From: a virus
Length of the DNA stretch: 64,000 bases
Direction: 5' to 3' (one strand)
Virus record (IMG/VR): IMGVR_UViG_3300021437_000001
Coordinates: 32,001 to 96,000 of that record
Under the pieces are notes generated by a model that was not told where the DNA came from, searched no databases, and saw nothing but the letters and a program-made list of their open reading frames with translations. Below are positions 31,935 through 61,381 of this stretch, piece by piece (position 1 is the first letter of the stretch; the number at the start of each line of letters is the position of its first letter). The translations under genes were made by a program, and so were the position numbers.

Positions 31935-32101
31935 TGATTTGCGGTAGTGGTGGAACTGATAAGGACTTTGATTGTTACGATTACTATGTAAATTGTACAG
32001 TCAACCTTAAACCAGAACCAACGCTAAAAGAATTTGAAATTTGTAAACGAAATGAAAAATCAGGAATTAAACGGATAGAGAAACTAAAGGATACAAAATG
32101 A
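31901..32101 (+). CDS. Small Cys-containing exported hypothetical protein
   Basis: Hydrophobic N-terminus, several Cys; ATGA coupling to the next gene. Confidence 0.45.
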   Translation: MSTAAIATTILMICGSGGTDKDFDCYDYYVNCTVNLKPEPTLKEFEICKRNEKSGIKRIEKLKDTK

Positions 32102-32394
32102 GCGATCAACTAAACACAGGACTACTTCCTATCGGGGCAGTCAAAATTCCAGCGGTGGCTCCAGTTAAACCAGTTGCCGAAAAGCCTAAATTACGAGGGC
32201 TTACGGCTACACACGTCATCGTTGACGAAGTAGAAATCCTAACACTCGCACAAGTCGAACAAGCTCAGATCGAGAAAGTTCTAGCAATCCTTGGCAACAA
32301 CAAAGCCAAAGCTGCGAATGCTCTAGGAATTACTGTTAAAACACTTTATAACAAACTTCATGACTATGGTTTGTTTGAGAAGTACAAGGCTTAA
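32098..32394 (+). CDS. Stand-alone Fis/NtrC-type HTH_8 DNA-binding protein
   Basis: LTLAQVEQAQIEKVLAILGNNKAKAANALGITVKTLYNKLHDYG is the C-terminal HTH signature of sigma54 enhancer-binding proteins; no AAA+ or receiver domain. Confidence 0.85.
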   Translation: MSDQLNTGLLPIGAVKIPAVAPVKPVAEKPKLRGLTATHVIVDEVEILTLAQVEQAQIEKVLAILGNNKAKAANALGITVKTLYNKLHDYGLFEKYKA

Positions 32395-46694: not shown

Positions 46695-47264
46695 ATGGCT
46701 GGCGGATTCAACAAAAATAAGAAGCAAATGACTAAGCGTGAGATGCAAGAGCAAGTGGGAACTCAAGCTAATAACGCTGTTCAAATGGTACAAGGATTGG
46801 CGATGGTTGTTAATCAACAAATTCGCAATCTTAAACTAGAGACCTCAAACCTTGCCGCAATGTCAATCATGCGAGAAGACGGTGGTGAAATTGGCAAATC
46901 CTCAATTGCTTATATCGACTTCGTAGGAACACTTGATGGCGAAGCTTTCGAAGGCGGAGAAGGTATTGGGGTGTTCGTTGATATGGAAGTTCATCAATTT
47001 CTATCTGATTTTCAATCAGCACTTGCTGGTATGAAAGCTGGAGAAACTAAGATCTTTGACGTAAAATTTCCTGAGAATTATCAGGCTAAAGAACTTGCGG
47101 CTAAAACTGCACAGTTTGAAGTCTGTGTTCGTAAAGTTTTGAATGAGATTCCGTCTCCTGTCGCTCTAAAGGCGCTAGAGATTCAAAAGGCTCGTGCCGC
47201 TAAAAAGGCTGCTGAGCAACAAGCTGCACAAACACAGGAGCAATCCGCTACTGTTGAAGGATAA
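46695..47264 (+). CDS. Trigger-factor-type FKBP PPIase domain protein
   Basis: IDFVGTLDGEAFEGG...F..AL.GMKAGE.K...VKFPENYQAKELA.K.A.FEV matches the trigger factor PPIase domain; ribosome-binding and C domains absent. Confidence 0.8.
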   Translation: MAGGFNKNKKQMTKREMQEQVGTQANNAVQMVQGLAMVVNQQIRNLKLETSNLAAMSIMREDGGEIGKSSIAYIDFVGTLDGEAFEGGEGIGVFVDMEVHQFLSDFQSALAGMKAGETKIFDVKFPENYQAKELAAKTAQFEVCVRKVLNEIPSPVALKALEIQKARAAKKAAEQQAAQTQEQSATVEG

Positions 47265-47267
47265 CTT

Positions 47268-47858
47268 ATGTCGAGTCGAGTAAAAAAAATAAGCTCGGCT
47301 CGCTCTAAGGATTCAACGCACTACGAGAATTTATTCGAGTATAACGTTAACTTCAAAGAACGAGTCGTATATTTGAACGATGAGATTAGTGTCGGTTCTT
47401 TAGAACTTATACAAAAAGCATTTGACGAATTTGATACTGCACCTGAAAAACCAGTCCGCATTGAGATTTCATCTTATGGTGGCTCTGTGTATGACATGTT
47501 CGGTATCATTGATAGAATCAAGGCTTCACCTTGTACTGTCATCACTAGAGGTTTCGGCAAAATCATGTCCGCAGCTACTTTTATTTTAGCTGCTGGAGAT
47601 GAACGTTATATCGGCAATCATTCTTGGGTCATGATCCATGAGATGAGTGACGTTGTGAAAGGTAAAATGGCCGATCTTGAAAATGACATGAAACACAATG
47701 CCAATTTGCAAAAGCAAATGTACAGCATGTATGAGAAACTTTCCGGTGGGAAAATTTCAGCGAAAACATGGGCAAAACTTTGTTCTAAAGACCACTACAT
47801 ATCAGCATCAGAAGTTTTAGAACTAGGGTTGGTGGATCATGTCACAGAAGAAGCGTAA
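47268..47858 (+). CDS. ClpP-like protease
   Basis: ERVVYL, ISSYGGSV, G..MSAATFILAAG, RY....VMIH, DHYISA.E.LELGLVD. Confidence 0.85.
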   Translation: MSSRVKKISSARSKDSTHYENLFEYNVNFKERVVYLNDEISVGSLELIQKAFDEFDTAPEKPVRIEISSYGGSVYDMFGIIDRIKASPCTVITRGFGKIMSAATFILAAGDERYIGNHSWVMIHEMSDVVKGKMADLENDMKHNANLQKQMYSMYEKLSGGKISAKTWAKLCSKDHYISASEVLELGLVDHVTEEA

Positions 47859-48084
47859 AAAGAATGTAGTAGTAGATTCTAAAGAGTTTCTTGCTGGCAT
47901 TCAAGCATTGACTATATACTACGAGCGTAAAGTGCAAGAATATACGCAAGTAAAAATGCAGTTAAATGATGAGCGCATCAACGAATCAATGCTAGAAGAT
48001 CTAGAAATTTTAGGAGATGTTTTAAACCACCTTACGACATTGGTGGGTGATCAATTAAAAAACGAAGGCGATAGTCTAAATTGA
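47839..48084 (+). CDS. Hypothetical protein
   Basis: In-operon ORF. Confidence 0.45.
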   Translation: MSQKKRKKNVVVDSKEFLAGIQALTIYYERKVQEYTQVKMQLNDERINESMLEDLEILGDVLNHLTTLVGDQLKNEGDSLN

Positions 48085-48090
48085 GGTTGT

Positions 48091-48846
48091 ATGAGCGATA
48101 AAATATATAAAGTAAGTTTAAGTGTGTGCGTGATTGGTATCTTGGCTGGTGTAGGTCTTTTAGCTAAAGGGTTACATGGTAAAGCTAAAAAATATAGAGC
48201 GCAAGCTGCTATAGAAAAACAAAAAGCTATGATCGAAAATCTAAAAGACAACACACTCTATATTGTCACATGCGACGCTGCGAAAAGATGTTTTACTGGT
48301 ACTGGTTTTGTAATTAAGTCTGACAATCAAGGTTCATGGATTTTGACTAATAAGCACGTTTGCAACCATAGCAGACTTTCAAGTAAAGATGCTGCTAAGA
48401 GTGGAAATATACATCAGTATTTACCAATAGGACTTGAAAGTCGTAAATTGGCTCGTACAGGTGGAGTTATAACTAAGGTAGGAGATAACACTGATCTGTG
48501 TTTGATTAGATCAGAAGAACGTTTCCCTCATCCTTTAAAGCTTGCGAAAGAAGCAATTCCACAAGAGAAAATGTTTACTTTCGGTTTTCCAAATAGTCAA
48601 CCAGAAGTAAACGAAGGAATTTATTTGCGCACAGAAGGTATTCCCCTCGCTTTTAATTCAGTCAGTTCTGCAAAAATATGGTTCGGTGCCAGTGGTTCTG
48701 CTGCTGTGAATAGTAAAGGTGAAGTGATTGGTGTTATGGCCGCCATTCGTCAAATACCTAACAAAGATCCTAAAGATAGAAAAAATGTATCTGAAAGTTT
48801 ATTTATACCTCTCGAAACAGTTCGAGAGTTTATTGGAGGAATTTAA
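48091..48846 (+). CDS. Membrane-anchored trypsin-like serine protease
   Basis: N-terminal TM; GTGF, LTNKHV, DLC, GASGS catalytic motifs. Confidence 0.8.
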   Translation: MSDKIYKVSLSVCVIGILAGVGLLAKGLHGKAKKYRAQAAIEKQKAMIENLKDNTLYIVTCDAAKRCFTGTGFVIKSDNQGSWILTNKHVCNHSRLSSKDAAKSGNIHQYLPIGLESRKLARTGGVITKVGDNTDLCLIRSEERFPHPLKLAKEAIPQEKMFTFGFPNSQPEVNEGIYLRTEGIPLAFNSVSSAKIWFGASGSAAVNSKGEVIGVMAAIRQIPNKDPKDRKNVSESLFIPLETVREFIGGI

Positions 48847-48847
48847 T

Positions 48848-49204
48848 ATGATCACTGCAAAAGTACAGTACGCTTTAACGCTGCTGAGAGACGTCCGAGA
48901 TAAGGCAGATGGTCGTCCTATAAAACTAAAAGATGTGTCTAAGGCTCATCAATTAGATTTAAACTTCTTAGAACAAGTCGCACGATCCTTGCGTATTGCA
49001 GGAGTTTTGCGCTCTGTTCGAGGACCTGGAGGCGGTTACGTTTCTGGTCGAGAACTATCAGGCATGAATCTGCTTGAAGTTATGGACGCCGTTGACGCAG
49101 CTAAGCAATTAAAGCATGCAACGCCTTCTGAAGGACCAATGCAGCTTAATCAAGCTGTCCATGCCGAACTAATGAAAGTAATCTCAACTATTCCGGTGTT
49201 GTAA
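48848..49204 (+). CDS. Rrf2-family transcriptional regulator
   Basis: YAL..L, FLEQV...LR.AGVL.SVRGPGGGY; GGAGG RBS before ATG 48848; no Cys cluster. Confidence 0.85.
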   Translation: MITAKVQYALTLLRDVRDKADGRPIKLKDVSKAHQLDLNFLEQVARSLRIAGVLRSVRGPGGGYVSGRELSGMNLLEVMDAVDAAKQLKHATPSEGPMQLNQAVHAELMKVISTIPVL

Positions 49205-49205
49205 G

Positions 49206-49427
49206 ATGAGAGTCTTATCTGAAAGAGAAAGACTATTGGTTGAGCTAGTTCATTTACTTTCTTACGGAGATAAGATTGATTTCGGACTGACTCTAGAAGA
49301 AGTTCAAACTTATCTAGAAAAGCCGATACCTCGTAAGAAAAACAGAAACGCCCTTCAATGTCTTGATGCCGATGGAGAACGTTTTCTGCAACAATTAAAA
49401 GATCATTTAGCTGAACGTAAACGCTGA
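49206..49427 (+). CDS. Hypothetical protein
   Basis: Follows the Rrf2 gene directly. Confidence 0.45.
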   Translation: MRVLSERERLLVELVHLLSYGDKIDFGLTLEEVQTYLEKPIPRKKNRNALQCLDADGERFLQQLKDHLAERKR

Positions 49428-50131
49428 CAAGCCGCTTGCAATAGCTCATGCGTATAGATTGCAGTGGCTTGAGAACTTCCGCTCATACTGGCTTTTCCTG
49501 AGCGTTTATCAAAAGAAATAATGTGCTCTCCCTCTCTCCAAATCATTCCTGGTAGGCCAAAATTTGAACTAGGACTTCTTTGTTTTTCATTGACGCCATT
49601 ACCTACCACTCGCATATTAGGTAGGTTTAAAGATGCAGGATAATAAGGCTCTTTGCTAATGTCCCATGCGGCCTTTTTAATTCTGCCGACTGTGTCTAAT
49701 TCATAATTACCCGAGGCCACGACAATAATACCAGAGTAGGCTTTTACAGCTTTAGTCTCTTCTTTAATTTCCTCTCTGCCACCACCAGAAAAATTAACTA
49801 TCTCTACGCCTAGGGTTTTTGCAAGTTCAAAACATTCAGCCGTTGAATGTGTTGCTGGATTGAAGAATTTGCATGAAATTATTTCGACTTCAGGGCACAC
49901 TTTATCCGAAAGTTTTGGACCGAACAATATCAGTCCAGTGATGTGCGTGCCGTGTCCGTGTCTGTCTATTAAGTCAGAATCCGAGTTATGTTTAGATAAG
50001 AACGGCTGCAATTCGTCAATCTGACTGATGCCTGTATCTATTACCATTACTCGTATCGAGTGTAGATTGGGTTCGCTTGCGCAAACCCCACCCATCAAAA
50101 AAGCTATTGAAAATAAAAATAGTTTTCTCAC
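49403..50131 (-). CDS. Secreted subtilisin-like (S8) protease
   Basis: Signal peptide; VIDTG, HGHGTHI, ASGN, SGSSQAT. Confidence 0.82.
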   Translation of the reverse strand: MRKLFLFSIAFLMGGVCASEPNLHSIRVMVIDTGISQIDELQPFLSKHNSDSDLIDRHGHGTHITGLILFGPKLSDKVCPEVEIISCKFFNPATHSTAECFELAKTLGVEIVNFSGGGREEIKEETKAVKAYSGIIVVASGNYELDTVGRIKKAAWDISKEPYYPASLNLPNMRVVGNGVNEKQRSPSSNFGLPGMIWREGEHIISFDKRSGKASMSGSSQATAIYTHELLQAACQRLRSAK

Positions 50132-50139
50132 AAAAAATC

Positions 50140-50577
50140 CTAATCTTTATCAGAATGCTCTTTGTCATCCGAAGATTTAAGCATCATACACAAAACACTT
50201 CGTTGAAAGTTAAGGTCAATTCCAGCCTCATAAGTTCCATTGTTATTAATATCTGTAAAGCTATCAATAACAACTCCACCATTAGGGCAAAGTGAACTTG
50301 GGGCAAGATATTGTTTGATCACTGCATTAGCACCATGCGGTCCAGTGTCGCCTTTAGGACCTACGCTGCCCGTTGCACCGTTATAACCGTTCATGCCGTT
50401 AAGACCACGAGGGCCGACTGGACCAGTAGCACCTGTCAATCCAGTATCTCCTTTGTCTCCCTTATCACCTTTAAGTCCTTGCTTCCCTTGTACGGTTTTG
50501 ACTTCGGAATAACCGTCATTACACCCTGAAAGTCCAATTGCAATTGCGATAAAAAACAACATCACTGCCAATTTCAT
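50140..50577 (-). CDS. Collagen-like repeat lipoprotein
   Basis: Lipobox LSGC, G-X-Y repeats, CPNGG...DINNNG motif; AAAGGAG RBS before ATG 50577. Confidence 0.7.
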   Translation of the reverse strand: MKLAVMLFFIAIAIGLSGCNDGYSEVKTVQGKQGLKGDKGDKGDTGLTGATGPVGPRGLNGMNGYNGATGSVGPKGDTGPHGANAVIKQYLAPSSLCPNGGVVIDSFTDINNNGTYEAGIDLNFQRSVLCMMLKSSDDKEHSDKD

Positions 50578-50590
50578 AAAATCTCCTTTG

Positions 50591-51511
50591 TTAGATAAGA
50601 TTTGCATCGGTTAAAACTTCACGAATAGTCTCTTCGTCCTCGTAAGAGTCTTCTGAGACTCGCATTACGAGATTGTCACCTTCGTATTGATCATGCAGCG
50701 CCGCAAGATCTAGAATATCTTGGCGAGTAACTTCATCAATTGAATACTCTTCCTCGTCTAATTCAGTTTCATAGTCCTCATCAGTAAATTGATTCTCACG
50801 ACCATATACTGTTTGATTCTCAATGGGCTTTTCACAAACTTGCAACACTTCAAACTTACAAATACGCATCTTTTCACCGTTGTAGTCGATAGGTACTGCA
50901 ACGACATCTTTAGGATTGATCTTTACTTCGACACGAGTCCCAGACCAATTAGAGGCATAGTTCCACGCTGCGGCATGCAATCCTGCCGAACACGTTCTAG
51001 TAGGGTCATCATCCACTTGCTCTCTAGGCATTTCACAAATAGCTCCTGGACTATTGTCAAACTTTCCGGTGTGCTTGTCTTTAAAGTCCTCAGTCACGCC
51101 ACGGTAGGCAATAAAACAACCGTCGTCAGTAAAAGGGTGTCCATTATGTTCAAGGAATTTAAACAATTGCTCTCGGGAACGGTAACTTGGATTCTGTTTG
51201 AGATTCTCCCAAAACTTAAGCAAGTAAGCAAATGGAATTCCTTCACGTTTAAACTCTAAAATGCGGGCATTTAGTTCAGTTGGTAAAGCCTCACCTGTCG
51301 AAGTGATAACTTGACCGTCTACAATTCGCAAACCGTCTTTGGCAAATTGTGCAGAGATGTCAACGAGTTCGGGAATTTCTGCGATTCGCCCTTCTTTAAT
51401 TGCCAAGATAACTTTACCAAAACGGTCGTCACCTCGAGCGATAGCCAGTGTTTTACCGTCAAAATTTACAGTCACGCTGTTTTGTGTGATGTGATAATTT
51501 ATTTTTCCCAT
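50591..51511 (-). CDS. rIIB: rIIB-like protein
   Basis: FWENL..NPS, LF.FL, DGCFIAY, MPRE.VDDDP...CS.GLH, VKINPKDVV.VP.DY...K.R.CK. Confidence 0.8.
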   Translation of the reverse strand: MGKINYHITQNSVTVNFDGKTLAIARGDDRFGKVILAIKEGRIAEIPELVDISAQFAKDGLRIVDGQVITSTGEALPTELNARILEFKREGIPFAYLLKFWENLKQNPSYRSREQLFKFLEHNGHPFTDDGCFIAYRGVTEDFKDKHTGKFDNSPGAICEMPREQVDDDPTRTCSAGLHAAAWNYASNWSGTRVEVKINPKDVVAVPIDYNGEKMRICKFEVLQVCEKPIENQTVYGRENQFTDEDYETELDEEEYSIDEVTRQDILDLAALHDQYEGDNLVMRVSEDSYEDEETIREVLTDANLI

Positions 51512-51534
51512 ACTTATCTCCTTTGTTACTTCTC

Positions 51535-51561
51535 TTATCGGTATAATTTTTTAAAACTTTA
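51535..51561 (-). promoter_or_regulatory. sigma28 (FliA)-type promoter
   Basis: TAAAGTTT-N11-ACCGATAA upstream of the rIIB RBS. Confidence 0.75.
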
Positions 51562-51873
51562 GTGATTTATTGATTGATCTAGCAATTTTTTTAAAGCCTC
51601 TCGACCTTCTGCCATTGCTGCCAAGCTGACCGTGTTGTCTGGCGTATGCTCTCTCAATAGATTAAACATACGATCATACTCAGTAAACACTTCGGCCTTG
51701 CTAGTCACTAGCTGACCGATACTGTAAAGCACGGACAATTGAGCATCGGTTAGCATTTTGAAACGCATGACTGTCATCCTATCGTCAATCTCTGAGTTAT
51801 CCACGATAAGCGCATACTGTATCGTATTGATAAATGCCCTAGCCATGACTGCGTTAATATTAAGTTTTTCCAT
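51559..51873 (-). CDS. Hypothetical protein between rIIA and rIIB
   Basis: AAGGAG RBS; about 104 aa. Confidence 0.55.
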   Translation of the reverse strand: MEKLNINAVMARAFINTIQYALIVDNSEIDDRMTVMRFKMLTDAQLSVLYSIGQLVTSKAEVFTEYDRMFNLLREHTPDNTVSLAAMAEGREALKKLLDQSINH

Positions 51874-51882
51874 ATTCACTCC

Positions 51883-53940
51883 TTATTTATTGTTTAGATA
51901 CCATGTCATTTCACGTCTACATTCTGCATCTGAGTAACGGTCCATGTGTTTCAACAATGGATATTTATCGTTAACTAACGCTTTCATTTCGGCGTCTTGT
52001 TCTAAAAACTTCACATACTCAGCATCATCTTTGAACCTTGTTACTAATACCGGAGGCACGTCCCTACCTTTATAAGCCTTGTTCATCATCTTGTATTGAT
52101 CGACCATTTTAGTCAACTTTTTATTTTTAATGCCCTCAAGTTGAGACAGTTTCTCAATGATGTGTAAGTTTAAAGCCTTAGCACGCATCATTCTGAGACG
52201 TATGTCTTCGGTGATAGTGATTTGATCTGCCCAATCTTTATACAGAGTGAAGCCTTTTTCACCTTGTACGATTTCAAATGTTTCTTTCGAGACCGCAATA
52301 AAGATCGGCTTTTTGTTTTTTGCGTCGTGTCGTGAACCACCAAATTCTCGAATCATTGTGTTCATTGATTCTTTTTTGTCTTGCCAGTCTGACAGTAAAC
52401 AGTAAATATATTCTCGACCGCTTGCAGACATTGCCGATGCAGTTTCGGCGTTCGTGTCTCGACCGTAACCATTCAAGTAATGGATATTTTGTTGACTCGC
52501 AAGCTTGGCCGCCTTGATTGCTTTTGGTGTTCGTGGAGGCAAAACAAAAGTAATGGCATGAAAGTCGTGAAACTTTCCTAAGATGTCTTGAAGGTCTTTC
52601 AAGGCCTTAGTTGGTGCCACGTCAAACTTTAATTGAGTGACTGTGCCTAGGCTATCCGTTGTCGTGGTAGGTCTTGCTCGAATGATATACATATCTTTAT
52701 TTGCACTAAGCACAGACTTGATTCGACGATTCATTGTCACTATCGACTCATCTTGATTGATCAAGTAGATGTTATGCAAATGATCAAATGGAATTCCCTT
52801 CACATTTGAGTCTTTGATCTTGTCACCACGCATTGTGTACTGGCGAAAAGTAACAGAGCCAAGTAAGTTTGTATATAAATATTGACCGTCAAAACGAAAA
52901 CCTTTGTATTCGTTATTTTGCATTACAAAATATTTGTACATACTGTGATAAACAGTGACGAATTCTTTGACAGTAGAGATTGCATTGATCTTTGCATTGA
53001 CATGGTTTTTCACGTCAGTTAGAAGTTTAGTGCCGATCTTTGCAAGACCTTTGCGAGTAAAATCAGAATCATCAAGTTTTTCACGACTTGCGGAAACTTG
53101 CACAAGTCCATTAGGAATTCTGATCACCATGTAACCTGCTAATTCCTTGCGTAGGTTTTCCATTGGCGCTACTTTCTCTAATAGGTCAGAAGGTAGGGCA
53201 TAAGGAATGCCGTCGATAACTAATAGACCTGAACGATTGTAGCCACTTGTAAGATAACTAGGTAAAAAATCACTGCTATTAGTAATTAACAAAGGGCCAA
53301 CTTCATAGCCTCGTAGCATAGAATCTAATGTCAAATTCTTTACCACTGGCATTTCTTCTTGTGTCCAAAAGTAACAGGCACGCTTGATCGAGTTACAAAA
53401 TTCTGTAACATCTCTAGGATTGACTGCAATCTGTATTTCGCAGCCATTAGGCTGATCAGTTTGAACTGTTTCGATTAAGTCCAATTGACCAACATTTGAT
53501 GAGCCGACGTGCGCATTGTAGGTGCGACGTGTGCCGTTGACTGTGGATTGAATGATAAAACCGTCTGCATAAGACCAAGCAGACTTAGCGCCAATGCCGA
53601 AGCCGCCTGTCTGTGTATTGTTTGTGCGCTTAGTAGAGGCACCATAAAGCACGAACACATTAGCCATTCTGTCTGGACTAATACCAGGACCAAAGTCTCG
53701 AACTTTAAATGTTGGCTCAAGTTGAGTCGGCGCAACAACTTCGATGCGTCGAGTCTGTCCGATTTCACGATGTGCGTCACGAGCATTGCTCATGTATTCT
53801 TGTACAAGTGTGCGAATTTTATGCTCATATAAACGATTGCGAAGAATCTCAATAACGACCGAAGGATCACCGATGCCAAATGATTGAGATTGAACGTCTT
53901 GATTTGATTCGTACTTGTTATTATGTCCAGCGATTCTCAT
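51883..53940 (-). CDS. rIIA: rIIA-like protein (N-terminal GHKL ATPase)
   Basis: LY..K...VQEYMSNARDAH, VRDFGPGIS, YGASTK......GGFGIGAKS; upstream of rIIB. Confidence 0.82.
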   Translation of the reverse strand: MRIAGHNNKYESNQDVQSQSFGIGDPSVVIEILRNRLYEHKIRTLVQEYMSNARDAHREIGQTRRIEVVAPTQLEPTFKVRDFGPGISPDRMANVFVLYGASTKRTNNTQTGGFGIGAKSAWSYADGFIIQSTVNGTRRTYNAHVGSSNVGQLDLIETVQTDQPNGCEIQIAVNPRDVTEFCNSIKRACYFWTQEEMPVVKNLTLDSMLRGYEVGPLLITNSSDFLPSYLTSGYNRSGLLVIDGIPYALPSDLLEKVAPMENLRKELAGYMVIRIPNGLVQVSASREKLDDSDFTRKGLAKIGTKLLTDVKNHVNAKINAISTVKEFVTVYHSMYKYFVMQNNEYKGFRFDGQYLYTNLLGSVTFRQYTMRGDKIKDSNVKGIPFDHLHNIYLINQDESIVTMNRRIKSVLSANKDMYIIRARPTTTTDSLGTVTQLKFDVAPTKALKDLQDILGKFHDFHAITFVLPPRTPKAIKAAKLASQQNIHYLNGYGRDTNAETASAMSASGREYIYCLLSDWQDKKESMNTMIREFGGSRHDAKNKKPIFIAVSKETFEIVQGEKGFTLYKDWADQITITEDIRLRMMRAKALNLHIIEKLSQLEGIKNKKLTKMVDQYKMMNKAYKGRDVPPVLVTRFKDDAEYVKFLEQDAEMKALVNDKYPLLKHMDRYSDAECRREMTWYLNNK

Positions 53941-53987
53941 TGTGTTACTCCTTTGCTTGGCTTCATTGCCTTGCTTTCATATAATAC

Positions 53988-54014
53988 TTATCGGCAGGTT
54001 TTCAAAAAACTTTA
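53988..54014 (-). promoter_or_regulatory. sigma28 (FliA)-type promoter
   Basis: Perfect TAAAGTTT-N11-GCCGATAA upstream of rIIA. Confidence 0.82.
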
Positions 54015-54017
54015 GAA

Positions 54018-54296
54018 CTATTTTGAATTTCTTTTTTTATACTCTGACATATAAGACTCTTCCTTAGCGATTCGAGCCGCTTGCTCTTCATCCGTCTCAT
54101 CTCGATAAGAATTCCAGCAAACATAAATATCTTGAGAAAAATTTGTATCTTCTGCCACAAAAACAAAAGTATTATGGCCCACAATTTCTTGTAACTGTTC
54201 AATATTAATTGCTTTATCTGGCAAAAGGGCTTTATGACTGGTCTGTACTTTTTGTTTTTCATAATTAATTTTAATAGCGTATGCGTATGCTGGCAT
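54018..54296 (-). CDS. Hypothetical protein
   Basis: AAGGAG RBS, own promoter. Confidence 0.6.
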   Translation of the reverse strand: MPAYAYAIKINYEKQKVQTSHKALLPDKAINIEQLQEIVGHNTFVFVAEDTNFSQDIYVCWNSYRDETDEEQAARIAKEESYMSEYKKRNSK

Positions 54297-54317
54297 TAAA
54301 ATCTCCTTGTTTAATAC

Positions 54318-54344
54318 TTATCGGCAGAATTTTAAAAAACTTTA
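54318..54344 (-). promoter_or_regulatory. sigma28 (FliA)-type promoter
   Basis: Perfect TAAAGTTT-N11-GCCGATAA. Confidence 0.82.
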
Positions 54345-55118
54345 GTCTTTTTTAATAAATTTTTGTATATCGTCCATTGATATAAGTCCCATAGGTGCCA
54401 AGCCATTATTTACACTCTTCAATTCAAAAAAGAAGTCTGGCTGTTCACCGAAGGCTTTAAATTCAAAACCGACTTGCGTCACATGGCCCACGGGTTTAGT
54501 CAAAAAATAAGCGGCATCATACCAAGACCGCAAGTCTGAACTGCCTCGGATATTGTCTGCGGCATTCTTAGACTTTGACGTCTTATTGTGATGCACAAGC
54601 ATGATCGCCGTGCCACTGTCCCGCTGTAAGTGTCTCAATTTGGTAAGTATCTTACTCATTTGAGACGTGCTACCTTCGGCAGTGTTCGGAATGAGACGCA
54701 CCAATGGGTCCATAATGATAAGCAATGGCCTCTCTTCAGTCACTTGCTTTCGCAATGCCTCAAAATGCTCATCGTTATCTAGTGCGAAGTTTTGCCCTGC
54801 CACGATTGACACGTTTTGTCGTAGGTCTCGCATTGAGGCTTGTTTTGCTCTGCAAATTTGCTCTAGACGTTCTTTGATAATTGCACCGCTATCCTCGCCT
54901 TGTATCATCATGACTCTGCCTTGTTTCAATACGTTATACATTCCAAAACATTTTTCACCTGTGGCAATACTGACCAACAATTCACCAGCAAGCCAAGACT
55001 TTCTCGTTTTGGGATCACCTGCCACAAGACACGTTGACGACTCTGGTAGTAGTCTCTCAATGAGCCATGATGTGTTGCCTTTATCATCTAGTTGATCAAT
55101 TGATTCAAACTTAAACAT
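54342..55118 (-). CDS. RecA-fold ATPase (AAA_25 / RepA helicase-like)
   Basis: WLIE.LLP, GDPKTRKS, QGED, IMDPL, LVHH, RGSS. Confidence 0.8.
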   Translation of the reverse strand: MFKFESIDQLDDKGNTSWLIERLLPESSTCLVAGDPKTRKSWLAGELLVSIATGEKCFGMYNVLKQGRVMMIQGEDSGAIIKERLEQICRAKQASMRDLRQNVSIVAGQNFALDNDEHFEALRKQVTEERPLLIIMDPLVRLIPNTAEGSTSQMSKILTKLRHLQRDSGTAIMLVHHNKTSKSKNAADNIRGSSDLRSWYDAAYFLTKPVGHVTQVGFEFKAFGEQPDFFFELKSVNNGLAPMGLISMDDIQKFIKKD

Positions 55119-55142
55119 TTGGCCCTTGCCTTTCTCCTATCC

Positions 55143-55170
55143 TTATCGGTAGGTATATTGAAAAACTTTA
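55143..55170 (-). promoter_or_regulatory. sigma28 (FliA)-type promoter
   Basis: TAAAGTTT-N12-ACCGATAA. Confidence 0.65.
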
Positions 55171-55207
55171 GCAAAATAGTCAACTATTACAATAAAAAAA
55201 TGTCTAC

Positions 55208-55429
55208 CTAGTTGAACTGAGACGTCTCAGGTAGATACATTTCATTGAGTTGATCAAGTAAAATGCTAGCGTACACCTCGGGTGTATTGATATGAGACGG
55301 TAGGTTCGTGATTAGTACCACGAACCCAGACGCCTCGAGTGTTTCAATCCAGGACATTGCCTCATCATCTAATTCATTGACAAGACGTTCTGCTGTAGCA
55401 TATTGAGATTTACCTTTGATTAGTATCAT
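55208..55429 (-). CDS. Hypothetical early-region protein
   Basis: GGAG RBS, ATG at about 55429 (MILIKG...). Confidence 0.5.
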   Translation of the reverse strand: MILIKGKSQYATAERLVNELDDEAMSWIETLEASGFVVLITNLPSHINTPEVYASILLDQLNEMYLPETSQFN

Positions 55430-55620
55430 TTTGACTCCAATTTTTGGTTTATTAATTCTTGCAATCCTCGTGCCGATACCATTAATGAATGAATTTCTAA
55501 CATTAAGACGCCACAAACTAACGGCATATCAGATTGATTCAAGTGGCCGTGTCTCTCCATTTGAGACACTAATGCCTTGAGTTTGTTTGCTCTGTCAATC
55601 ATAAACTGAACCTGTTCCAT
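55426..55620 (-). CDS. Hypothetical early-region protein
   Basis: AGGAG RBS, coupled ORF. Confidence 0.5.
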   Translation of the reverse strand: MEQVQFMIDRANKLKALVSQMERHGHLNQSDMPLVCGVLMLEIHSLMVSARGLQELINQKLESK

Positions 55621-55922
55621 TATGAGACTCCTAGGAATTTGTAGCGTTTTGTTACGACGTGTACTGTATTAAATTGAGACGTGTTGACTATTTCTCCAGT
55701 CTCGACGTTCAATAGTTCAAAACTTGAGTCTGAAATCAGTACCTCAGTGACGTCTTGACTTAGTCGGTAGCATCCTATCTTTTTGCCCTCTGAGTACTTG
55801 CGGACCCATGCGGTAGCATCGGCGAAAGTGTCAAGCGGTGTCGATAAGTCTCGACCGTTTTGCGTGACCATGTACCAAGACCGTTGACCAAGGGTATGTC
55901 TTAAAATGAAACACTTATCCAT
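55620..55922 (-). CDS. Hypothetical early-region protein
   Basis: Coupled ORF, 100 aa. Confidence 0.55.
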   Translation of the reverse strand: MDKCFILRHTLGQRSWYMVTQNGRDLSTPLDTFADATAWVRKYSEGKKIGCYRLSQDVTEVLISDSSFELLNVETGEIVNTSQFNTVHVVTKRYKFLGVS

Positions 55923-56145
55923 TTGACACCTTCTTGTTTCGTTTTGATACAGGTAGGTTTCGAGACTCTTTCAAGGCTTGCTGCGCATCTTGAATCATGC
56001 TTTCGACTGCGGTCAATGTAACTTTTGCGCCGTGAGCCTTAACAACGGCTAGCAAAACTTGTGCCAAATTCATTATTAACACCGTGTCCTCATTGAAGAC
56101 AGGATTAGGTTGTTTCAATTTGATAACTTTCGCATTCTGTTCCAT
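55915..56145 (-). CDS. Hypothetical early-region protein
   Basis: AAAGGAG RBS, first gene after a sigma28-type promoter. Confidence 0.6.
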   Translation of the reverse strand: MEQNAKVIKLKQPNPVFNEDTVLIMNLAQVLLAVVKAHGAKVTLTAVESMIQDAQQALKESRNLPVSKRNKKVSNG

Positions 56146-56177
56146 TTTGATACTCCTTTGTTTAGTGTTCGTTTTTC

Positions 56178-56205
56178 TTATCGGACGATTGAGTCAAAAA
56201 CTTAA
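56178..56205 (-). promoter_or_regulatory. sigma28 (FliA)-type promoter (variant)
   Basis: TTAAGTTT-N12-TCCGATAA. Confidence 0.55.
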
Positions 56206-56224
56206 GAACTATTTTTGTCTCAAA

Positions 56225-56827
56225 TTAGCACGCTCCCCAGCCAGCAAGCATCGTCTCAAATTGAGACTCTTTTTTGATTGCTTTTTCACGTTCAATTTTT
56301 ATTTTTGCGTCAAGTTTTGCCTTGACCGTTGCAATTTTTGTCTTGAGGCTTGCAATCCTTTTTTGCAAGCCTTGCGGTCTCAAGTCACCTTGACAGACTG
56401 GACATTTTGCGGACTGATAGACTTTCAAGGCAAGCAATCGAGACTTGCAAGCGCCGCAAGTGTGAAAGGCTTTCGACCGTGTCAACGGCTTGCTTTCAAG
56501 GTCACGCAATTGCGTCGATAGCGCCTTGACTCGGTCTTGCAATTTTGACAGTGACTTGCTTTCGATAGTCACCTCACAAAAATAAACAGCCACAACGGTG
56601 TCCCATTTTGAGGCATTTTTCAAACAAAAATCATGTGCCTCATTATAAGACGTAAAGACTTGATCAAGTCTATAGTCTACTTTTGAGACAGTTTGAAAGT
56701 CGCCGCTATAACCGTCTTGATGTCCATTTTCGAGACGGTCTTGATCTTGTTTTGACTTAAATAGATCATAAATCTCATTTCGAGACAACTTTCCTTTTCT
56801 AGTTGTCTCAATATTACACGCTCCCAT
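56225..56827 (-). CDS. Hypothetical protein with zinc finger flanked by coiled coils
   Basis: CGAC...CPVC; AAAAGGAG RBS. Confidence 0.65.
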   Translation of the reverse strand: MGACNIETTRKGKLSRNEIYDLFKSKQDQDRLENGHQDGYSGDFQTVSKVDYRLDQVFTSYNEAHDFCLKNASKWDTVVAVYFCEVTIESKSLSKLQDRVKALSTQLRDLESKPLTRSKAFHTCGACKSRLLALKVYQSAKCPVCQGDLRPQGLQKRIASLKTKIATVKAKLDAKIKIEREKAIKKESQFETMLAGWGAC

Positions 56828-56869
56828 TTGACACGCTCCTTTTTGATACGTTGTTTAGTAGACGTCACG

Positions 56870-56901
56870 AAAAAGGCCCCATCTCAAAATGAGACAGGGC
56901 C
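56870..56901 (-). terminator. Intrinsic terminator built on the palindrome motif
   Basis: Minus strand GGCCCTGTCTCA-TTT-TGAGATGGGGCC-TTTTT (12-bp stem with G-U pairs). Confidence 0.75.
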
Positions 56902-56909
56902 ACAAAGGA

Positions 56910-57392
56910 TTACACCGCCTCATCCTGAGACGTTTTTCGGACATTTGGTTGTATTGAATTGGGAATCTGTATTCTTTTGAGACCAGTTATTTTGCGTGCC
57001 AAAATGAGACCATCATTCCAGTCGTCTTGACGTCCGTCGCTTGCGACGTCGATAAGATCACCTAGACGATGTTTCAAAATGATAAGGCAAGCGGTCACGA
57101 CTGTATCATACGGATACATATTCGTTTTGCAAAAATCTGACTCATTTTGAGACAAGTGCTCTCGCATAACGAAGTCCTCACATGAGCCGACTCGTTCTGA
57201 GCCATTCACTTTGAGACCACCATAGAGTTTTGGCTCACAATGAGCCGAAAATCCAGCGAGACCGCCAAACGTCTCAGAATAATACCGTATCGTTTTGGCA
57301 CATTCATAAATCGCTTTTTGATACGCTGCCTCAGATTGAGTCGCTTTGCCTTTCGGCGCTTTTTTGAAAGTCCAGTAATGCGTATATCCCAT
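56910..57392 (-). CDS. Conserved-type phage hypothetical protein
   Basis: MGYTHYW N-terminus and FCKT..PYD..VTACL...SDG pattern; AAAGGAG RBS. Confidence 0.7.
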   Translation of the reverse strand: MGYTHYWTFKKAPKGKATQSEAAYQKAIYECAKTIRYYSETFGGLAGFSAHCEPKLYGGLKVNGSERVGSCEDFVMREHLSQNESDFCKTNMYPYDTVVTACLIILKHRLGDLIDVASDGRQDDWNDGLILARKITGLKRIQIPNSIQPNVRKTSQDEAV

Positions 57393-57459
57393 TTTGATAC
57401 TCCTTTGTTTTGAGACCGTCGTCTTGACAAGTCTCGGTTTTGTTTTGCTGTCTTATCTC

Positions 57460-57486
57460 TTATCGGTCACTTTTTTAAAAACTTGA
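57460..57486 (-). promoter_or_regulatory. sigma28 (FliA)-type promoter
   Basis: TCAAGTTT-N11-ACCGATAA. Confidence 0.7.
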
Positions 57487-57512
57487 GGCTTTCAGTCAAC
57501 TTTTTTAAAAAA

Positions 57513-57800
57513 TCACGCCGCTTTAAATTGATTCAATATGTCCCAATCTGAGACAGTTTCATTGGTATCGTCCCAAACTAAGACAGTACGTCCAGCGTGA
57601 CCGTGCAATAGGATAGCGTCAACCCATGTCTCAAATTGAGTCACTGAATTGATCTTGCGAGTCGAGCCGTCCGCAAGTTTTGCGTCAACGGTCCAGCGGA
57701 CTTGCGTCAAGCCTTGCGCATTGACTTGACCGCTTGCAACGTGTCCAGTGCCCGACGTGCCTGTCAAGTCTTGCAATCGTATCAACTTAAATGTTCTCAT
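57513..57800 (-). CDS. Conserved-type phage hypothetical protein
   Basis: MRTFKLIR..D.TGTSGTG.VA.G...VRW...HGH.G.T..VW; AAAGGAG RBS before ATG 57800. Confidence 0.7.
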   Translation of the reverse strand: MRTFKLIRLQDLTGTSGTGHVASGQVNAQGLTQVRWTVDAKLADGSTRKINSVTQFETWVDAILLHGHAGRTVLVWDDTNETVSDWDILNQFKAA

Positions 57801-57886
57801 TTTGAGACTCCTTTGTTTACGTCTTGCGTCAATATTGACAGACGACGTCAAAACAGTCAAGTAAAAAATACAGTCTCATTTTGAGA

Positions 57887-58084
57887 CTAAAGACCGTACC
57901 ATGTCAAACTGAGACGGTCTTGATTTTCATTCAATCGGTCAAGTTCAAGGTCTGTCAAGTCTTGCAACGTGTCAAGATAGCTTGCGGACTGGACAAAAAA
58001 GCCGTCGCCGTCCAGTGACTCGACGCAAGCCTCAATTTTTCGACCGTCAACGGTCAAAACAAGATCTTTTTTGCGTTGTCTCAT
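57887..58084 (-). CDS. Hypothetical early-region protein
   Basis: 65 aa acidic ORF after the Gp88-like gene. Confidence 0.5.
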   Translation of the reverse strand: MRQRKKDLVLTVDGRKIEACVESLDGDGFFVQSASYLDTLQDLTDLELDRLNENQDRLSLTWYGL

Positions 58085-58085
58085 A

Positions 58086-58754
58086 TTAAGCCACCTTATC
58101 CCACGTCGTGTTTTGATAGTTTTTTGCGCCGTGATAGACTAGACCGATTTTGTTTTGCTTGCCTTGCGCCGCTATCAAGTCGTCTTGCGTGCTGTCAACG
58201 TAGCCAGCCGCTTGCAATGCCTCTAGACTTTCAAACACTTTCGAGTGAAAGTCTGTCTCAATTTGAATCAAGTCGTCTTGTTTGCCACCGAAGGAAAAAA
58301 TGACTCGGAATGAGACAGGCAAGTTTTTATAGGACTGTATCATTTTGACCATTTTTGAATAGGCATAAAATGAGACACGTTTTTCTGTCTCAAAATGGCG
58401 CATGATTGCAATCCATTTTTCAAAATATTCAAGGCTGTAAAAATCACCCGCATCATGAATTCTCACTTTGAGATTTTCAACGCTTCTCTTTTTGAGCCAT
58501 GTCTCAATTTCGGAAATCATTGCAGGGACAAAATTCTCACTTTGAGACAGTTCAAGTTTTGCATTATGAGCCGATACGGACGACTTGAAACGATACGTTC
58601 CAGATCGAGCGTAGCATCCTGAGACGCATGCGCTTGCCATTGGGCACGTCTTGAAACCTGTCTCAGATTGAAACGCTGGCAAGGTCCAGTTAACGACCGT
58701 TGTCCCACTTTGAGACGACTTTTTCATTTTTGCATTTTGAGTTAACAATATCAT
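58086..58754 (-). CDS. Gp88-like protein (Cys-cluster, radical-SAM-like fold)
   Basis: N.KM.K, TCP.AS.C...CYA..G, VRIHDAGDFYS..Y, FYAYSK. Confidence 0.75.
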   Translation of the reverse strand: MILLTQNAKMKKSSQSGTTVVNWTLPAFQSETGFKTCPMASACVSGCYARSGTYRFKSSVSAHNAKLELSQSENFVPAMISEIETWLKKRSVENLKVRIHDAGDFYSLEYFEKWIAIMRHFETEKRVSFYAYSKMVKMIQSYKNLPVSFRVIFSFGGKQDDLIQIETDFHSKVFESLEALQAAGYVDSTQDDLIAAQGKQNKIGLVYHGAKNYQNTTWDKVA

Positions 58755-58801
58755 TTTGATACTCCTTTGTTTTGCAAGCCGTCTTGACTTGCTTGACTAT
58801 C

Positions 58802-58828
58802 TTATCGGTCACTTTTTTAAAAACTTGA
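58802..58828 (-). promoter_or_regulatory. sigma28 (FliA)-type promoter
   Basis: TCAAGTTT-N11-ACCGATAA, identical to 57460-57486. Confidence 0.7.
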
Positions 58829-58848
58829 GGCCTTTTTTGCAAAAAAAT

Positions 58849-58883
58849 AAAAAAAGAGGCCGTATCAGATTGATACAGCCCCT
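58849..58883 (-). terminator. Intrinsic terminator built on the palindrome motif
   Basis: Minus strand AGGGGCTGTATCA-ATC-TGATACGGCCTCT followed by a T run. Confidence 0.75.
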
Positions 58884-58895
58884 ATTCGTCTCAAA

Positions 58896-59684
58896 TTAAG
58901 CCGCTTTGATCAATTGAGTCGCAGCGTCCCATATTGAGGCGTTCAAGTCGATAGCTTTCACGCTTTCAGTCTTGATTTTGCGTGCTGTCATGTTGCGGAC
59001 GTTTTGCACGCCGTTCTCATCTTGAGACACTGTTTGGTATCTCAATCCGAAACGAATAATGTTCTCTTGTATCACATTGAGACAACTAAACAAGTCATTT
59101 TTTGCGTCGTCTTGACGTCGGACTTTCAGCAAGTCCGCAATCTCAATCTTGACAACGTTGTCAATGCCTTGCAATCGGATTGACGCAACGTCTTGCGCAA
59201 GCTTGATCAACTCACTCGGTGACACGTCACGGGCTTGCATCATTTTGACCGTATCAACTAAAGACTCACGTTGAGCAACTAGTCTCGGAATGAGACTGTC
59301 AAGTTCTTGATACGGATTGCCTAAGTGTTTCACTTTGATTGTCTCAAAATGAGTCCCAACGTTCAATTGGTTGGCGCAAGTCCCACGGAAAAGACCTAAA
59401 ACGCCTTGAAGTGAGCCGTATAAATGTGGGACTTTAAAAATGATGTCAAAACCGAGGCCGTCAATTGCAAAACCGTCTCTTGATCGGTATCTTGCAACGG
59501 TCGTTTGAAAGTCTTGACGGTCTGGACTTTTTGCCTTGCCTGTCTTAAGATGAACTAGGTCAAAACCGTGACTGTCTAGGACTTCAGCTATCAATGCGGG
59601 CTTGATAGCTTGAAAGCGGTCTGATTTTGAAACGTGTTTTTGATCTTGCACGAAGCTAGTTGAAACTGTGTTATTTTGAGACAT
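58896..59684 (-). CDS. DUF932/DUF945-family protein
   Basis: SDRF..I.......L...GF, GLFR..C.N, LL..RR..D...DL....NVIQEN.I, LN..IW; AAAGGAAG RBS before ATG 59684. Confidence 0.75.
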   Translation of the reverse strand: MSQNNTVSTSFVQDQKHVSKSDRFQAIKPALIAEVLDSHGFDLVHLKTGKAKSPDRQDFQTTVARYRSRDGFAIDGLGFDIIFKVPHLYGSLQGVLGLFRGTCANQLNVGTHFETIKVKHLGNPYQELDSLIPRLVAQRESLVDTVKMMQARDVSPSELIKLAQDVASIRLQGIDNVVKIEIADLLKVRRQDDAKNDLFSCLNVIQENIIRFGLRYQTVSQDENGVQNVRNMTARKIKTESVKAIDLNASIWDAATQLIKAA

Positions 59685-59736
59685 TTTGCACTTCCTTTGT
59701 TTTAACGGTCGCATCATTGCGCCGTCGATAGTTAAC

Positions 59737-59763
59737 TTATCGGTGACTTTTTAAAAAACTTGA
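59737..59763 (-). promoter_or_regulatory. sigma28 (FliA)-type promoter
   Basis: TCAAGTTT-N11-ACCGATAA. Confidence 0.7.
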
Positions 59764-59920
59764 GGCCTTTTTTAAAAAAAACTTATCTTTTTTGCATCGA
59801 CTCGACAACTGTCTTAATTTGAGCCGTTGTCGGTATTGACACCATCAAGCACGCCGCCCCATAAAGATACAGTCCTAAAATGAGACTAAAAGCTATTAAC
59901 TGTTTCATATTGAGATTCTC

Positions 59921-60070
59921 CTATTGTTTAGTATTTAAGTCAAGTATATTCTCATCTTGAGACGAAAAAGACTCGACCGCTAAGTATCCCAATATGAGAC
60001 ACCAAGCTGTTGTGTATCCATTTGAGCCGAAAGTCAAGTAAACAAAAATAAGCAATGAAAACTGTTTCAT
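59921..60070 (-). CDS. Small hydrophobic peptide
   Basis: MKQFSLLIFVYL..., AAAAGGGG RBS-like before ATG 60070. Confidence 0.4.
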   Translation of the reverse strand: MKQFSLLIFVYLTFGSNGYTTAWCLILGYLAVESFSSQDENILDLNTKQ

Positions 60071-60086
60071 ATTGATACGCCCCTTT

Positions 60087-60356
60087 TTATTCAAAATCAG
60101 ATAAGTCAAAACCCATTGAGTCAACGGCTTGCAAGACAGGCGTCTCAAAATGAGACTCATATAGACTTATCAAGTCTTGACCTAGGTCTTGCACGGCTTG
60201 ACTTTTTGACGCTTGCATTGCACGCAAGGCTTTCGACTTATAACTCATGTCACCACCCATGCAACGGTCAAGCTGTCTCAAAGTGAGATGCTCAACGATT
60301 TCTGTCCAGATTTGAGACATTTGAGCTTGAACTTGACGATTTTTGTCTTGTCTCAT
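60087..60356 (-). CDS. Hypothetical early-region protein
   Basis: 89 aa, AAAGG upstream. Confidence 0.55.
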   Translation of the reverse strand: MRQDKNRQVQAQMSQIWTEIVEHLTLRQLDRCMGGDMSYKSKALRAMQASKSQAVQDLGQDLISLYESHFETPVLQAVDSMGFDLSDFE

Positions 60357-60357
60357 A

Positions 60358-60519
60358 TTAAGCCGCCTTTCTCAAAACGATACATACGGTTGGATTGTTC
60401 TCAAATTGAGCCTGTTGCTTTTTGATACGTTTTGGCTTGCTTGCGCCCTCGGCGTGTCCAGCCTTAAGTTTTGTCAAAATCACGTTTTTTTGTCCAGCTA
60501 TCAGTTTAGGTTGTCTCAT
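60358..60519 (-). CDS. Small basic protein (not in ORF track), first gene after the sigma54-type promoter
   Basis: ATG 60519 to TAA 60358, 53 aa MRQPKLIAGQKNVILTKLKAGH...LRKAA; GAAAGG RBS. Confidence 0.5.
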   Translation of the reverse strand: MRQPKLIAGQKNVILTKLKAGHAEGASKPKRIKKQQAQFENNPTVCIVLRKAA

Positions 60520-60556
60520 TTTGAAGCCTTTCGTTTCGGGTTGATACTTAACTATC

Positions 60557-60574
60557 TTGCACGCCGCATGCCAA
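60557..60574 (-). promoter_or_regulatory. sigma54 (RpoN)-type -24/-12 promoter
   Basis: Minus strand TTGGCATGCGGCGTGCAA: GG-N10-GC spacing; predicted start about 60547, roughly 28 nt before ATG 60519. Confidence 0.6.
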
Positions 60575-60832
60575 CGTAAACACCTGAATTCACTTAAGTC
60601 TCAATCTGAGAAAGCGTCGATCTTTTAGTCAATCCAGCCCCTAAACCCTAAACCCCAGCAAAACCCACTACTTAAGGCCTGTCAATCTTATATACAAGAG
60701 TGACAGTTTTTGTCAAGTATCTCATATTGGTACACTGCCACGTTTTCACCTATATATAGAAAAACAACATAATCCCATAGTGAGACATATACACTTATTA
60801 AGGTCTATCTAGTCAAGGTCAAGTCTAGACCT

Positions 60833-60986
60833 AGGTCAACGGATAGCGTGACGATAGGTCAAGGCCTTGAGATAGTATTGCGGCAAGGTCAACGGATAGC
60901 AAGACAGAAAGGATTGAAATCTCAATATGAGACATGAATGGGTGTGAGTGTGTTGGAATGAGACAATCAGCGGATAGCAAGACAGA
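60833..60986 (+). repeat. Short direct repeats in the long non-coding region
   Basis: AGGTCAACGGATAGC at 60833 and 60886; CGGATAGCAAGACAGA at 60893 and 60971. Confidence 0.7.
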
Positions 60987-61381
60987 CGACCGTTGTCAAG
61001 CGTCAAAAAACTATCTAGTCGAGCGCAAAGCGTTTCAATTTGAGAATCTATGCGAAAATAAAAAAGAAAAAAGAAAGCGTCTCAAAATGAGACTCTGACG
61101 ATAATGTATATTATCATCACGTTTCAAAATGAGAATCCTCAATGAATACGGGGGGATAGCTGCGTTGCAGTGCCGAGGCCCTATGCTTGTGCCTAGTAGT
61201 CTCTCACAATTTTTTTAGCATTATATTAGTTGACGCACTGCGTTAAGCCTACAGTTTGCCAGACAGTTGATTTCCAGAAACGAAAATCCTGATTGAAAAT
61301 TTTATTTTTTGAGTGTGTAATAAGTTCTTGATTAGATTGCTAGTTTTTGTATTTTTTACACTTATAAATGACGCATTGCAT

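Follow-up and report, generated by a model that had tools for sequence, protein, structure and literature searches.

A minus-strand gene block of a freshwater phage headed by eight predicted sigma-28 (FliA)-type promoters

The gene block and its putative promoters

The stretch of DNA analysed here, referred to as the window, comprises 64,000 nucleotides (nt), bases 32001-96000, of the IMG/VR virus record IMGVR_UViG_3300021437_000001. The source record is 117,954 bp long with direct terminal repeats, has a CheckV completeness of 100% and a G+C content of 39%, and encodes a tailed phage in which the genes for portal, major capsid, sheath and baseplate bear a distant likeness to those of SPO1 (identity to Bacillus phages of 36-38% for the portal and 31-35% for the capsid). 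The minus strand of the window carries a block of genes, including rIIA and rIIB, in which eight two-box sites resembling promoters of sigma-28 (FliA), a sigma factor for flagellar genes, lie just before open reading frames (ORFs). These putative promoters are numbered P1 to P8 in transcription order, and the features of the block are listed below in window coordinates, with distances measured to the ATG preceded by a ribosome-binding site (RBS) and with positional orthologues in the related loci L011 and L012.

59737-59763, minus: P1, TCAAGTTT-N11-ACCGATAA, 52 nt to the ATG at 59684; positional orthologue at L011 3456
58896-59684, minus: DUF932-family gene (PF06067), RBS-preceded ATG at 59684 (start at 59717 in the ORF list)
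58855-58883, minus: terminator-like hairpin of 13 pairs plus a T run, lying after the DUF932 gene and before P2
58802-58828, minus: P2, TCAAGTTT-N11-ACCGATAA, 47 nt to the ATG at 58754; orthologue at L011 4774
57513-58754, minus: P2 unit, with a GP88-like gene at 58086-58754 (PF17338), a 65-aa ORF at 57887-58084 and a 115-aa ORF at 57513-57860 (phrog_7499)
57460-57486, minus: P3, TCAAGTTT-N11-ACCGATAA, 67 nt to the ATG at 57392; orthologue at L011 5815; a TTGACT hexamer is present 11 nt upstream of its -35 box
56910-57392, minus: 160-aa gene with no assigned function; orthologues 60% (L011) and 53-61% (L054, L015) identical
56875-56901, minus: terminator-like hairpin of 12 pairs plus a T run, containing a 15-bp palindrome (see below)
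56225-56827, minus: 200-aa gene with weak zinc-hook/coiled-coil matches, without a sigma-28 site of its own here and in L011
56178-56205, minus: P4, TTAAGTTT-N12-TCCGATAA, 32 nt to the ATG at 56145; orthologue at L011 7256
55208-56145, minus: P4 unit, with ORFs of 76 aa (55915-56145), 100 aa (55620-55922) and 102 aa (55208-55516)
55143-55170, minus: P5, TAAAGTTT-N12-ACCGATAA, 24 nt to the ATG at 55118
54342-55118, minus: gene for an AAA_25 (RecA/DnaB-like) ATPase of 258 aa, downstream of P5
54318-54344, minus: P6, exact TAAAGTTT-N11-GCCGATAA, 21 nt to the ATG at 54296; orthologue at L011 9602
54018-54296, minus: 92-aa gene with no assigned function; L011 orthologue 85% identical
53988-54014, minus: P7, exact TAAAGTTT-N11-GCCGATAA, 47 nt to the rIIA ATG at 53940
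51559-53940, minus: P7 unit, with rIIA at 51883-53940 (685 aa) and a 106-aa ORF at 51559-51879
51535-51561, minus: P8, TAAAGTTT-N11-ACCGATAA, 23 nt to the rIIB ATG at 51511; orthologues at L011 12420 and L012 3154
49150-51511, minus: P8 unit, with rIIB at 50591-51511, a collagen-repeat protein at 50140-50607, an S8 subtilase at 49403-50131 and a 99-aa ORF

The P3 unit consists of the 160-aa gene followed by the 200-aa gene. Taken together, the putative promoters and the two strong terminator-like hairpins, which are placed just after genes, break up some 10 kb of the minus strand into a series of short units. The -10 box ends 21-67 nt from an RBS-preceded ATG on the coding strand at all eight sites, which agrees with the placement just upstream of an RBS and an ORF described in an earlier note made from the sequence alone (the original prediction). 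The RBSs ahead of the eight ATGs are of the AAGGA/AGGCA type.

A different repeat, the 15-bp palindrome GTCTCAnnnTGAGAC, forms a dense array across window positions 54800-61150 (genome 86.8-93.2 kb). With up to two mismatches, 75 copies are present in the genome, 63 of them within genome 84-94 kb, compared with 1-8 in shuffled sequences. The copies span genes and spacers and overlap P1-P5, and each of the two terminator-like hairpins holds one in its stem-loop. The palindromes probably serve as operators for a dimeric regulator of this block.

Form of the sites and their excess over chance

All eight minus-strand sites of the original prediction were found where it had placed them (51535, 53988, 54318, 55143, 56178, 57460, 58802 and 59737), and the two described as perfect, at 53988 and 54318, are indeed exact copies of the sigma-28 consensus. 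The -35 element is T-(A/T/C)-AAGTTT in every site. The -10 element CCGATAA is likewise invariant, and is preceded by the G of GCCGATAA in two of the eight. The spacer between the 8-mers is N11 in six sites and N12 in two, and an extended form, CT(A/T/C)AAGTTTT ... CCGATAAG, is common to all eight.

These sites greatly exceed the number expected by chance. The -10 heptamer CCGATAA alone occurs 11 times in the window (5.29 expected), with the reported sites accounting for 8 of the 11. A search of the window with the two-box pattern TTATCGG-N12-AAACTT, allowing at most one mismatch, returned six sites against 0.14 expected, a number reached by none of 100 shuffles; the remaining two sites have a spacer longer by one base. 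The whole-genome scan proposed with the original prediction was carried out with AAGTTT-N11-13-CCGATA over all 117,954 bp and returned nine matches, eight of which are the reported sites, whereas 200 first-order Markov genomes gave 0.065 on average and never more than 1. The eight sites all fall within genome 83.5-91.8 kb. The three TCAAG sites (57460, 58802 and 59737) are near-identical across about 45 nt, and are thus probably recent duplicates.

The ninth AAGTTT...CCGATA match (window 58554-58576, plus strand) is antisense within the GP88-like gene and has an N10 spacer, one base under the sigma-28 range. It could be either a chance match or a weak antisense promoter, and was not counted.

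The exact consensus is also over-represented in viral contigs at large. A survey of IMG/VR with TAAAGTTT-N11-GCCGATAAG (the consensus plus a G) identified 118 stretches (L070-L187), compared with six for the reversed pattern used as control, so that the consensus is about 20 times commoner. At least 10 contigs, besides the relative G001 described below, carry two or three exact copies. The sigma-70 consensus was not enriched either in window 49-64 kb (30 occurrences, 30.1 expected) or in L009 (40 occurrences, 45.8 expected), and an analysis of over-represented k-mers for other promoter classes gave nothing useful. Sigma-70-like promoters are present ahead of several other genes of the phage.

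Conservation in related phages

No close cultured relative was detected when window 50000-60000 was compared by megablast with 50,697 phage records, and rIIA matched cultured phages at no more than 34% identity and over partial length only. A scan of viral contigs with the single rIIA protein returned nothing, and an alignment-based scan was needed; an rIIA alignment of 14 uncultured relatives led to 46 loci that were fetched from viral contigs. The rIIA identities to uncultured relatives are about 70%, 57%, 52% and 45%.

The motif is present in four of five related virus records and only on the rIIA strand, with nine sites in G001, two in G002, and one each in G003 and G004, while the reversed-pattern control gave none in all five. 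The G001 sites are confined to 64.0-73.3 kb of a 78-kb contig. The fifth record, G005 (rIIA identity 36%, G+C content 52%, 99% complete), contains no motif site, and its -35 half-site alone is not enriched (24 compared with 25 in the control). A lone CTCAAGTT is retained in G005 about 50 nt before rIIA.

Ahead of rIIA, five of five phages (rIIA protein identity 42-72%) carry CTAAAGTTTT and TGCCGATAAGTAT without any change, with a variable spacer between them. In L011, seven of the window promoters have a positional orthologue before the orthologous gene, even where the encoded proteins are only 25-30% identical (GP88-like and DUF932). The eighth, P5 before the AAA_25 gene, corresponds to a CCGATG variant in L011 and L013 (L011 8520-8590). 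L015 has a possible further site, TTAAG-N15-CCGATAA, before its orthologue of the 160-aa gene. Identities between the window and L011 over the seven orthologous promoter pairs are as follows.

-35 box: 56/56 identical
-10 box: 61/63 identical
Spacer: 43/78 identical
20 nt upstream: 93/140 identical
20 nt downstream: 73/140 identical

Moreover, each orthologous promoter has individually retained its own -35 variant (TAAAG, TCAAG or TTAAG). The conserved boxes, the drifting spacer and the maintained -35 variants indicate selection on a two-box promoter, rather than a repeat spread by recombination alone. More distant relatives show another promoter class at the same places: L014 has TTGACA-N17-TATAAG before rIIA and TTGACA-N17-TATAAC before rIIB (8820-8930 and 10900-10990), and L054 has TTGAC-type sites at the rII position (9850-10000). 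These sigma-70-type promoters show that the promoter class was switched within this phage group. The assignment of the eight sites as sigma-28/FliA-type promoters is thus well supported by their sequence, spacing, strand, position and evolutionary conservation.

Search for a phage sigma factor

A phage-encoded sigma factor elsewhere in the genome, dependence on which was named in the original prediction as a refuting finding, was looked for across the complete genome, and no sigma gene was detected. Six-frame searches with Sigma70_r2 gave no matches in the complete genome and none in the five related records at E<=1, and FliA_WhiG gave none at E<=10. The general sigma-70/ECF (extracytoplasmic function) model and Sigma70_r4 both pointed to one place only, an 85-aa ORF that scores below both cut-offs. 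The same region-4-like ORF was the only candidate from scans of predicted ORFs (176 ORFs of at least 55 aa against Pfam, 145 against PHROGs, and 29 unexplained ones against NCBIfam). Neither FliA nor FlgM nor any flagellar gene was found in the phage by the ORF and profile searches, and no sigma region-2 motif was seen by eye in fifteen unexplained ORFs, which is a weak test.

The 85-aa ORF (G000:C1:110111-110368, plus strand, equivalent to L010:10112-10369) lies outside the window, heads the capsid gene cluster and follows the region's two best sigma-70-like promoters. Its scores are below cut-off for Pfam Sigma70_r4 (22.9 bits), phrog_351 and several NCBIfam sigma models. The ORF was rejected as a sigma factor, being too short and resembling sigma region 4.2 alone. 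It is conserved in G001 (85%) and also in G005 (55%), where sigma-28-type sites are absent, so that its occurrence does not follow that of the motif. A 169-aa helix-turn-helix (HTH) protein was also rejected: its C-terminus is LuxR/RcsB-like, and its N-terminal half has no sigma match and is unlike region 2 by eye.

Predicted transcription by host RNA polymerase

Both boxes and their spacing match the cellular consensus, so the protein that reads the sites would need FliA-like DNA-binding regions and, with no phage sigma gene detectable, the host sigma-28 is the most likely candidate. We consider it probable that all eight function as genuine sigma-28 (FliA)-class promoters and are read by host RNA polymerase with its flagellar sigma factor. 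The polymerase carrying this factor would transcribe the block from the eight sites, serving the DUF932 and GP88-like genes, the small proteins, the AAA_25 ATPase, rIIA, rIIB and the genes that follow. Such transcription would require no phage protein, and so could start once the DNA enters the cell. We infer that transcripts start at the sites, that host FliA is the factor used and that the timing is early. Without a phage sigma factor, expression of the block should depend on active sigma-28, i.e. on a flagellated, motile host state, and this possible tie to motility is a reasonable reading.

The claim that the sites drive the early-type genes stands in part. The sites do head a sub-block of 8 kb, from the DUF932 gene to rIIB and beyond, but none is present further upstream on that strand, where mostly small genes fill approximately 18 kb (genome 92-109 kb), so that "the early genes" is too broad a term for what is one sub-block only.

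Several observations weigh against transcription by host FliA, or limit it. The sole RNA library that contains this DNA yielded four contigs of 150-165 nt (53810-53961, covering the rIIA start and leader, 57200-57363, 57856-58000 and 58094-58255; 5% of sampled words), which give neither start nor strand, may be DNA carry-over and thus speak neither for nor against the promoters; the uncovered parts carry no meaning. The FliA of the host is itself a prediction from the sites. P5 overlaps a sigma-70-like TTGACT-N17-CAATAT (window 55143-55190, minus strand), and may be a dual or decaying promoter. The near-identity of the three TCAAG sites reduces the number of independent sites in the genome to about six. 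The filling of the region with the 15-bp palindrome implies that another regulator acts there. Finally, about 70 ORFs have no assigned function, and profile searches could miss a very divergent sigma or a protein that gives the polymerase a new specificity.

The last point bears on the alternative that the sites are promoters read by a phage-encoded factor, either a divergent sigma or a protein that re-targets the polymerase, and form a phage-timed middle class. SPO1 gp28 and T4 MotA/AsiA are examples of such timing. In transcription order the sites follow the 18 kb of early-looking small genes that lack them, which is the layout of a middle class, and the 85-aa region-4.2-like ORF stands behind the two best sigma-70-like promoters of its region. 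However, the match to the cellular sigma-28 consensus is close in both boxes and in spacing, and FliA-like regions 2 and 4, which standard models can detect, were not found in the six-frame or ORF searches; the two proteins that could be put forward are too short and shared with the site-less G005, or LuxR/RcsB-like. A phage-encoded factor is thus unlikely.

Host and remaining explanations

The original prediction proposed a host that is probably a Bdellovibrionota-like predator, with FliA promoters used because only the motile, non-replicating attack-phase cell can be infected. Its premise, that FliA-type promoters dominate the attack phase of Bdellovibrio, is correct: 92 of 140 attack-phase promoters in B. 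bacteriovorus carry TTAAG-N16-CCGATA (PMC3627812). Among the phage sites, this form is exact in P4 only, and the other seven have an N15 spacer or TAAAG/TCAAG forms. Such forms are typical of other Proteobacteria, and the sigma-28 consensus is common to many flagellated lineages. The consensus is not specific to a phylum, and thus the motif does not discriminate between hosts.

No specific lead came from searches directed at the host. The cultured Bdellovibrio phage phi1422 (accession taken from PMC3391216) contains no AAG-N15/N16-CCGATA site. A link to phi1422 through the Fis-type HTH protein was rejected, as the likeness to gp46 is only at the domain level (44% over 43 residues). Best protein matches, suggested with the original prediction as a means of host prediction, contained no pointer to Bdellovibrionota. 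Searches with the portal, capsid, rIIA and tail-fibre proteins returned only distant cultured phages at below 40% identity, and the nearest cultured matches of the tail-fibre protein (28-32%) are from phages of Methylophilales, Synechococcus and Acidovorax. Considered as host clues, the branched-chain aminotransferase has cellular homologues of at most 37% identity from mixed taxa, and the homologues of a PhaR-N-like protein are probably phage-borne. A scan of genome collections with rIIA found only relatives of 32-33% identity, on contigs binned with metagenome-assembled genomes of Omnitrophota and Flavobacteriales, which are probably phage contigs. The sole hint of Bdellovibrionota came from an Atlas language-model cluster of small PhaR-N-like proteins near the 92-aa PhaR-N protein of the phage, in which Bdellovibrionota is the commonest known phylum (13 members with a record); it ranked second, behind a cluster of Pseudomonadota.

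A predatory Bdellovibrionota-like host is accordingly quite improbable. The exact match of P4 to the attack-phase consensus, the freshwater occurrence of the DNA, the second-ranked cluster and the many genes for self-sufficiency (GroEL, ClpP, ribonucleotide reductase, ThyX and ligases) are consistent with it. On the other side stand the form of seven of the eight sites, the absence of sites from phi1422, the protein searches, the sources of the nearest tail-fibre matches, and a gene content that is ordinary for a phage of this size. It is highly improbable that the repeats are binding sites of another protein or recombination boundaries of gene cassettes with an accidental likeness to sigma-28 promoters: the near-identity of three sites over about 45 nt, as expected of cassette boundaries, the gene order between sites, which differs between the window and L011, and the palindrome-packed region are outweighed by conservation limited to two boxes at fixed spacing while spacer and flanks drift, by the coding-strand location of all sites at promoter distance from start codons, by the sigma-70 promoters at the same places in distant relatives, and by the roughly 20-fold excess of the exact consensus over the reversed control in viral contigs.

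If the sites are promoters read by host FliA, as preferred here, one would expect a bacterial host from freshwater that has a FliA-type sigma factor and also uses ordinary sigma-70 promoters.

Other features of the genome

DNA of the phage is present in freshwater metagenomes. Its replication and metabolism genes encode a family A DNA polymerase, a primase-helicase, a class II ribonucleotide reductase, ThyX, and DNA and RNA ligases, and GroEL, ClpP, rIIA and rIIB are encoded as well. The primase-polymerase and DnaB-like helicase gene (740 aa, window 16885-19107, plus strand) shares about 115 nt with the beginning of the DNA polymerase gene and is overlooked by simple longest-ORF calling. A chaperone and protease set on the plus strand (window 12663-14312, 46695-48846 and 48728-49204) includes a divergent GroEL, an FKBP-type isomerase, ClpP and a trypsin-like protease; an Rrf2-family regulator comes next.

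The plus strand also encodes, at window 16000-16278 and 32098-32394, two small DNA-binding proteins that are cellular in type. One is a 92-aa protein with a PhaR N-terminal domain, conserved at 61-83% on 22 other uncultured contigs, and the second is a 98-aa protein of the Fis type (HTH_8). The branched-chain amino-acid aminotransferase gene (G000:C1:108449-109363, minus strand, equivalent to L010:8450-9364) is shared, at 40-89% conservation, by many contigs roughly 100-120 kb long and appears to be a long-standing auxiliary gene in this group of phages. No Rfam family and no tRNA was found in the window; one tRNA-Met is located outside it, at genome 109468-109544.

Implications

Textbook phage programmes use host sigma-70 promoters first and then factors made by the phage. 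No description of phage genes driven by host sigma-28 promoters was found among the papers listed by full-text literature searches, a provisional result since subscription journals were not covered, and only small known Bdellovibrio phages turned up there. The promoter type itself is known; what appears new is that a phage lacking its own sigma factor is predicted to use it, with conservation throughout a clade and in place of sigma-70 promoters.

We see an even chance that a wider proposal holds, in which a freshwater myovirus clade has rewired about 18 genes, including rIIA and rIIB, from sigma-70 to host sigma-28 without a phage sigma factor, only motile cells express the block, the state of the host is sensed through the promoter class, and the phage is one case of a wider habit among environmental phages. 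In its boldest version, the host would be a predator or another bacterium with an infectable stage run by FliA.

If true, the placing of a conserved block under an alternative sigma factor of the host would link part of a lytic-type phage programme to the motility state of the host, and this would matter for the conditions under which infections succeed in nature. A host clue from sequence only would be gained as well, namely that the host must carry FliA, a requirement that would exclude non-flagellated groups as well as flagellated groups without FliA. Since the sites match the E. coli sigma-28 consensus, the claim is easily testable.

Comparison with known systems

The closest counterparts are the class 3 flagellar promoters read by sigma-28 (FliA) of E. 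coli and Salmonella, for which the consensus is TAAAGTTT-N11-GCCGATAA. The phage sites share both boxes and the spacing, with two of eight exact, AAGTTT and CCGATAA present in all eight, and placement at promoter distance from the genes. They differ in that they precede rII, ATPase and unassigned genes in a phage of virulent type, rather than flagellar or chemotaxis genes.

A second comparison is with the middle and late promoters of phages that are read by phage sigma factors, such as SPO1 gp28 and gp33/34, T4 gp55 and phiEco32 gp36. As in these classes, near-identical promoters that are not of the sigma-70 type head one gene block, and the structural module of the phage is distantly SPO1-like. 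In contrast, no sigma gene was found in the complete genome here, and the promoter is that of a cellular sigma factor.

The third is the attack-phase FliA regulon of Bdellovibrio bacteriovorus (PMC3627812). Seven of the eight phage sites differ from its consensus in having N15 or TAAAG/TCAAG forms, and no link of the phage to that phylum was found; however, the same sigma family serves a large set of non-flagellar genes in that regulon, and one phage site is identical to its consensus.

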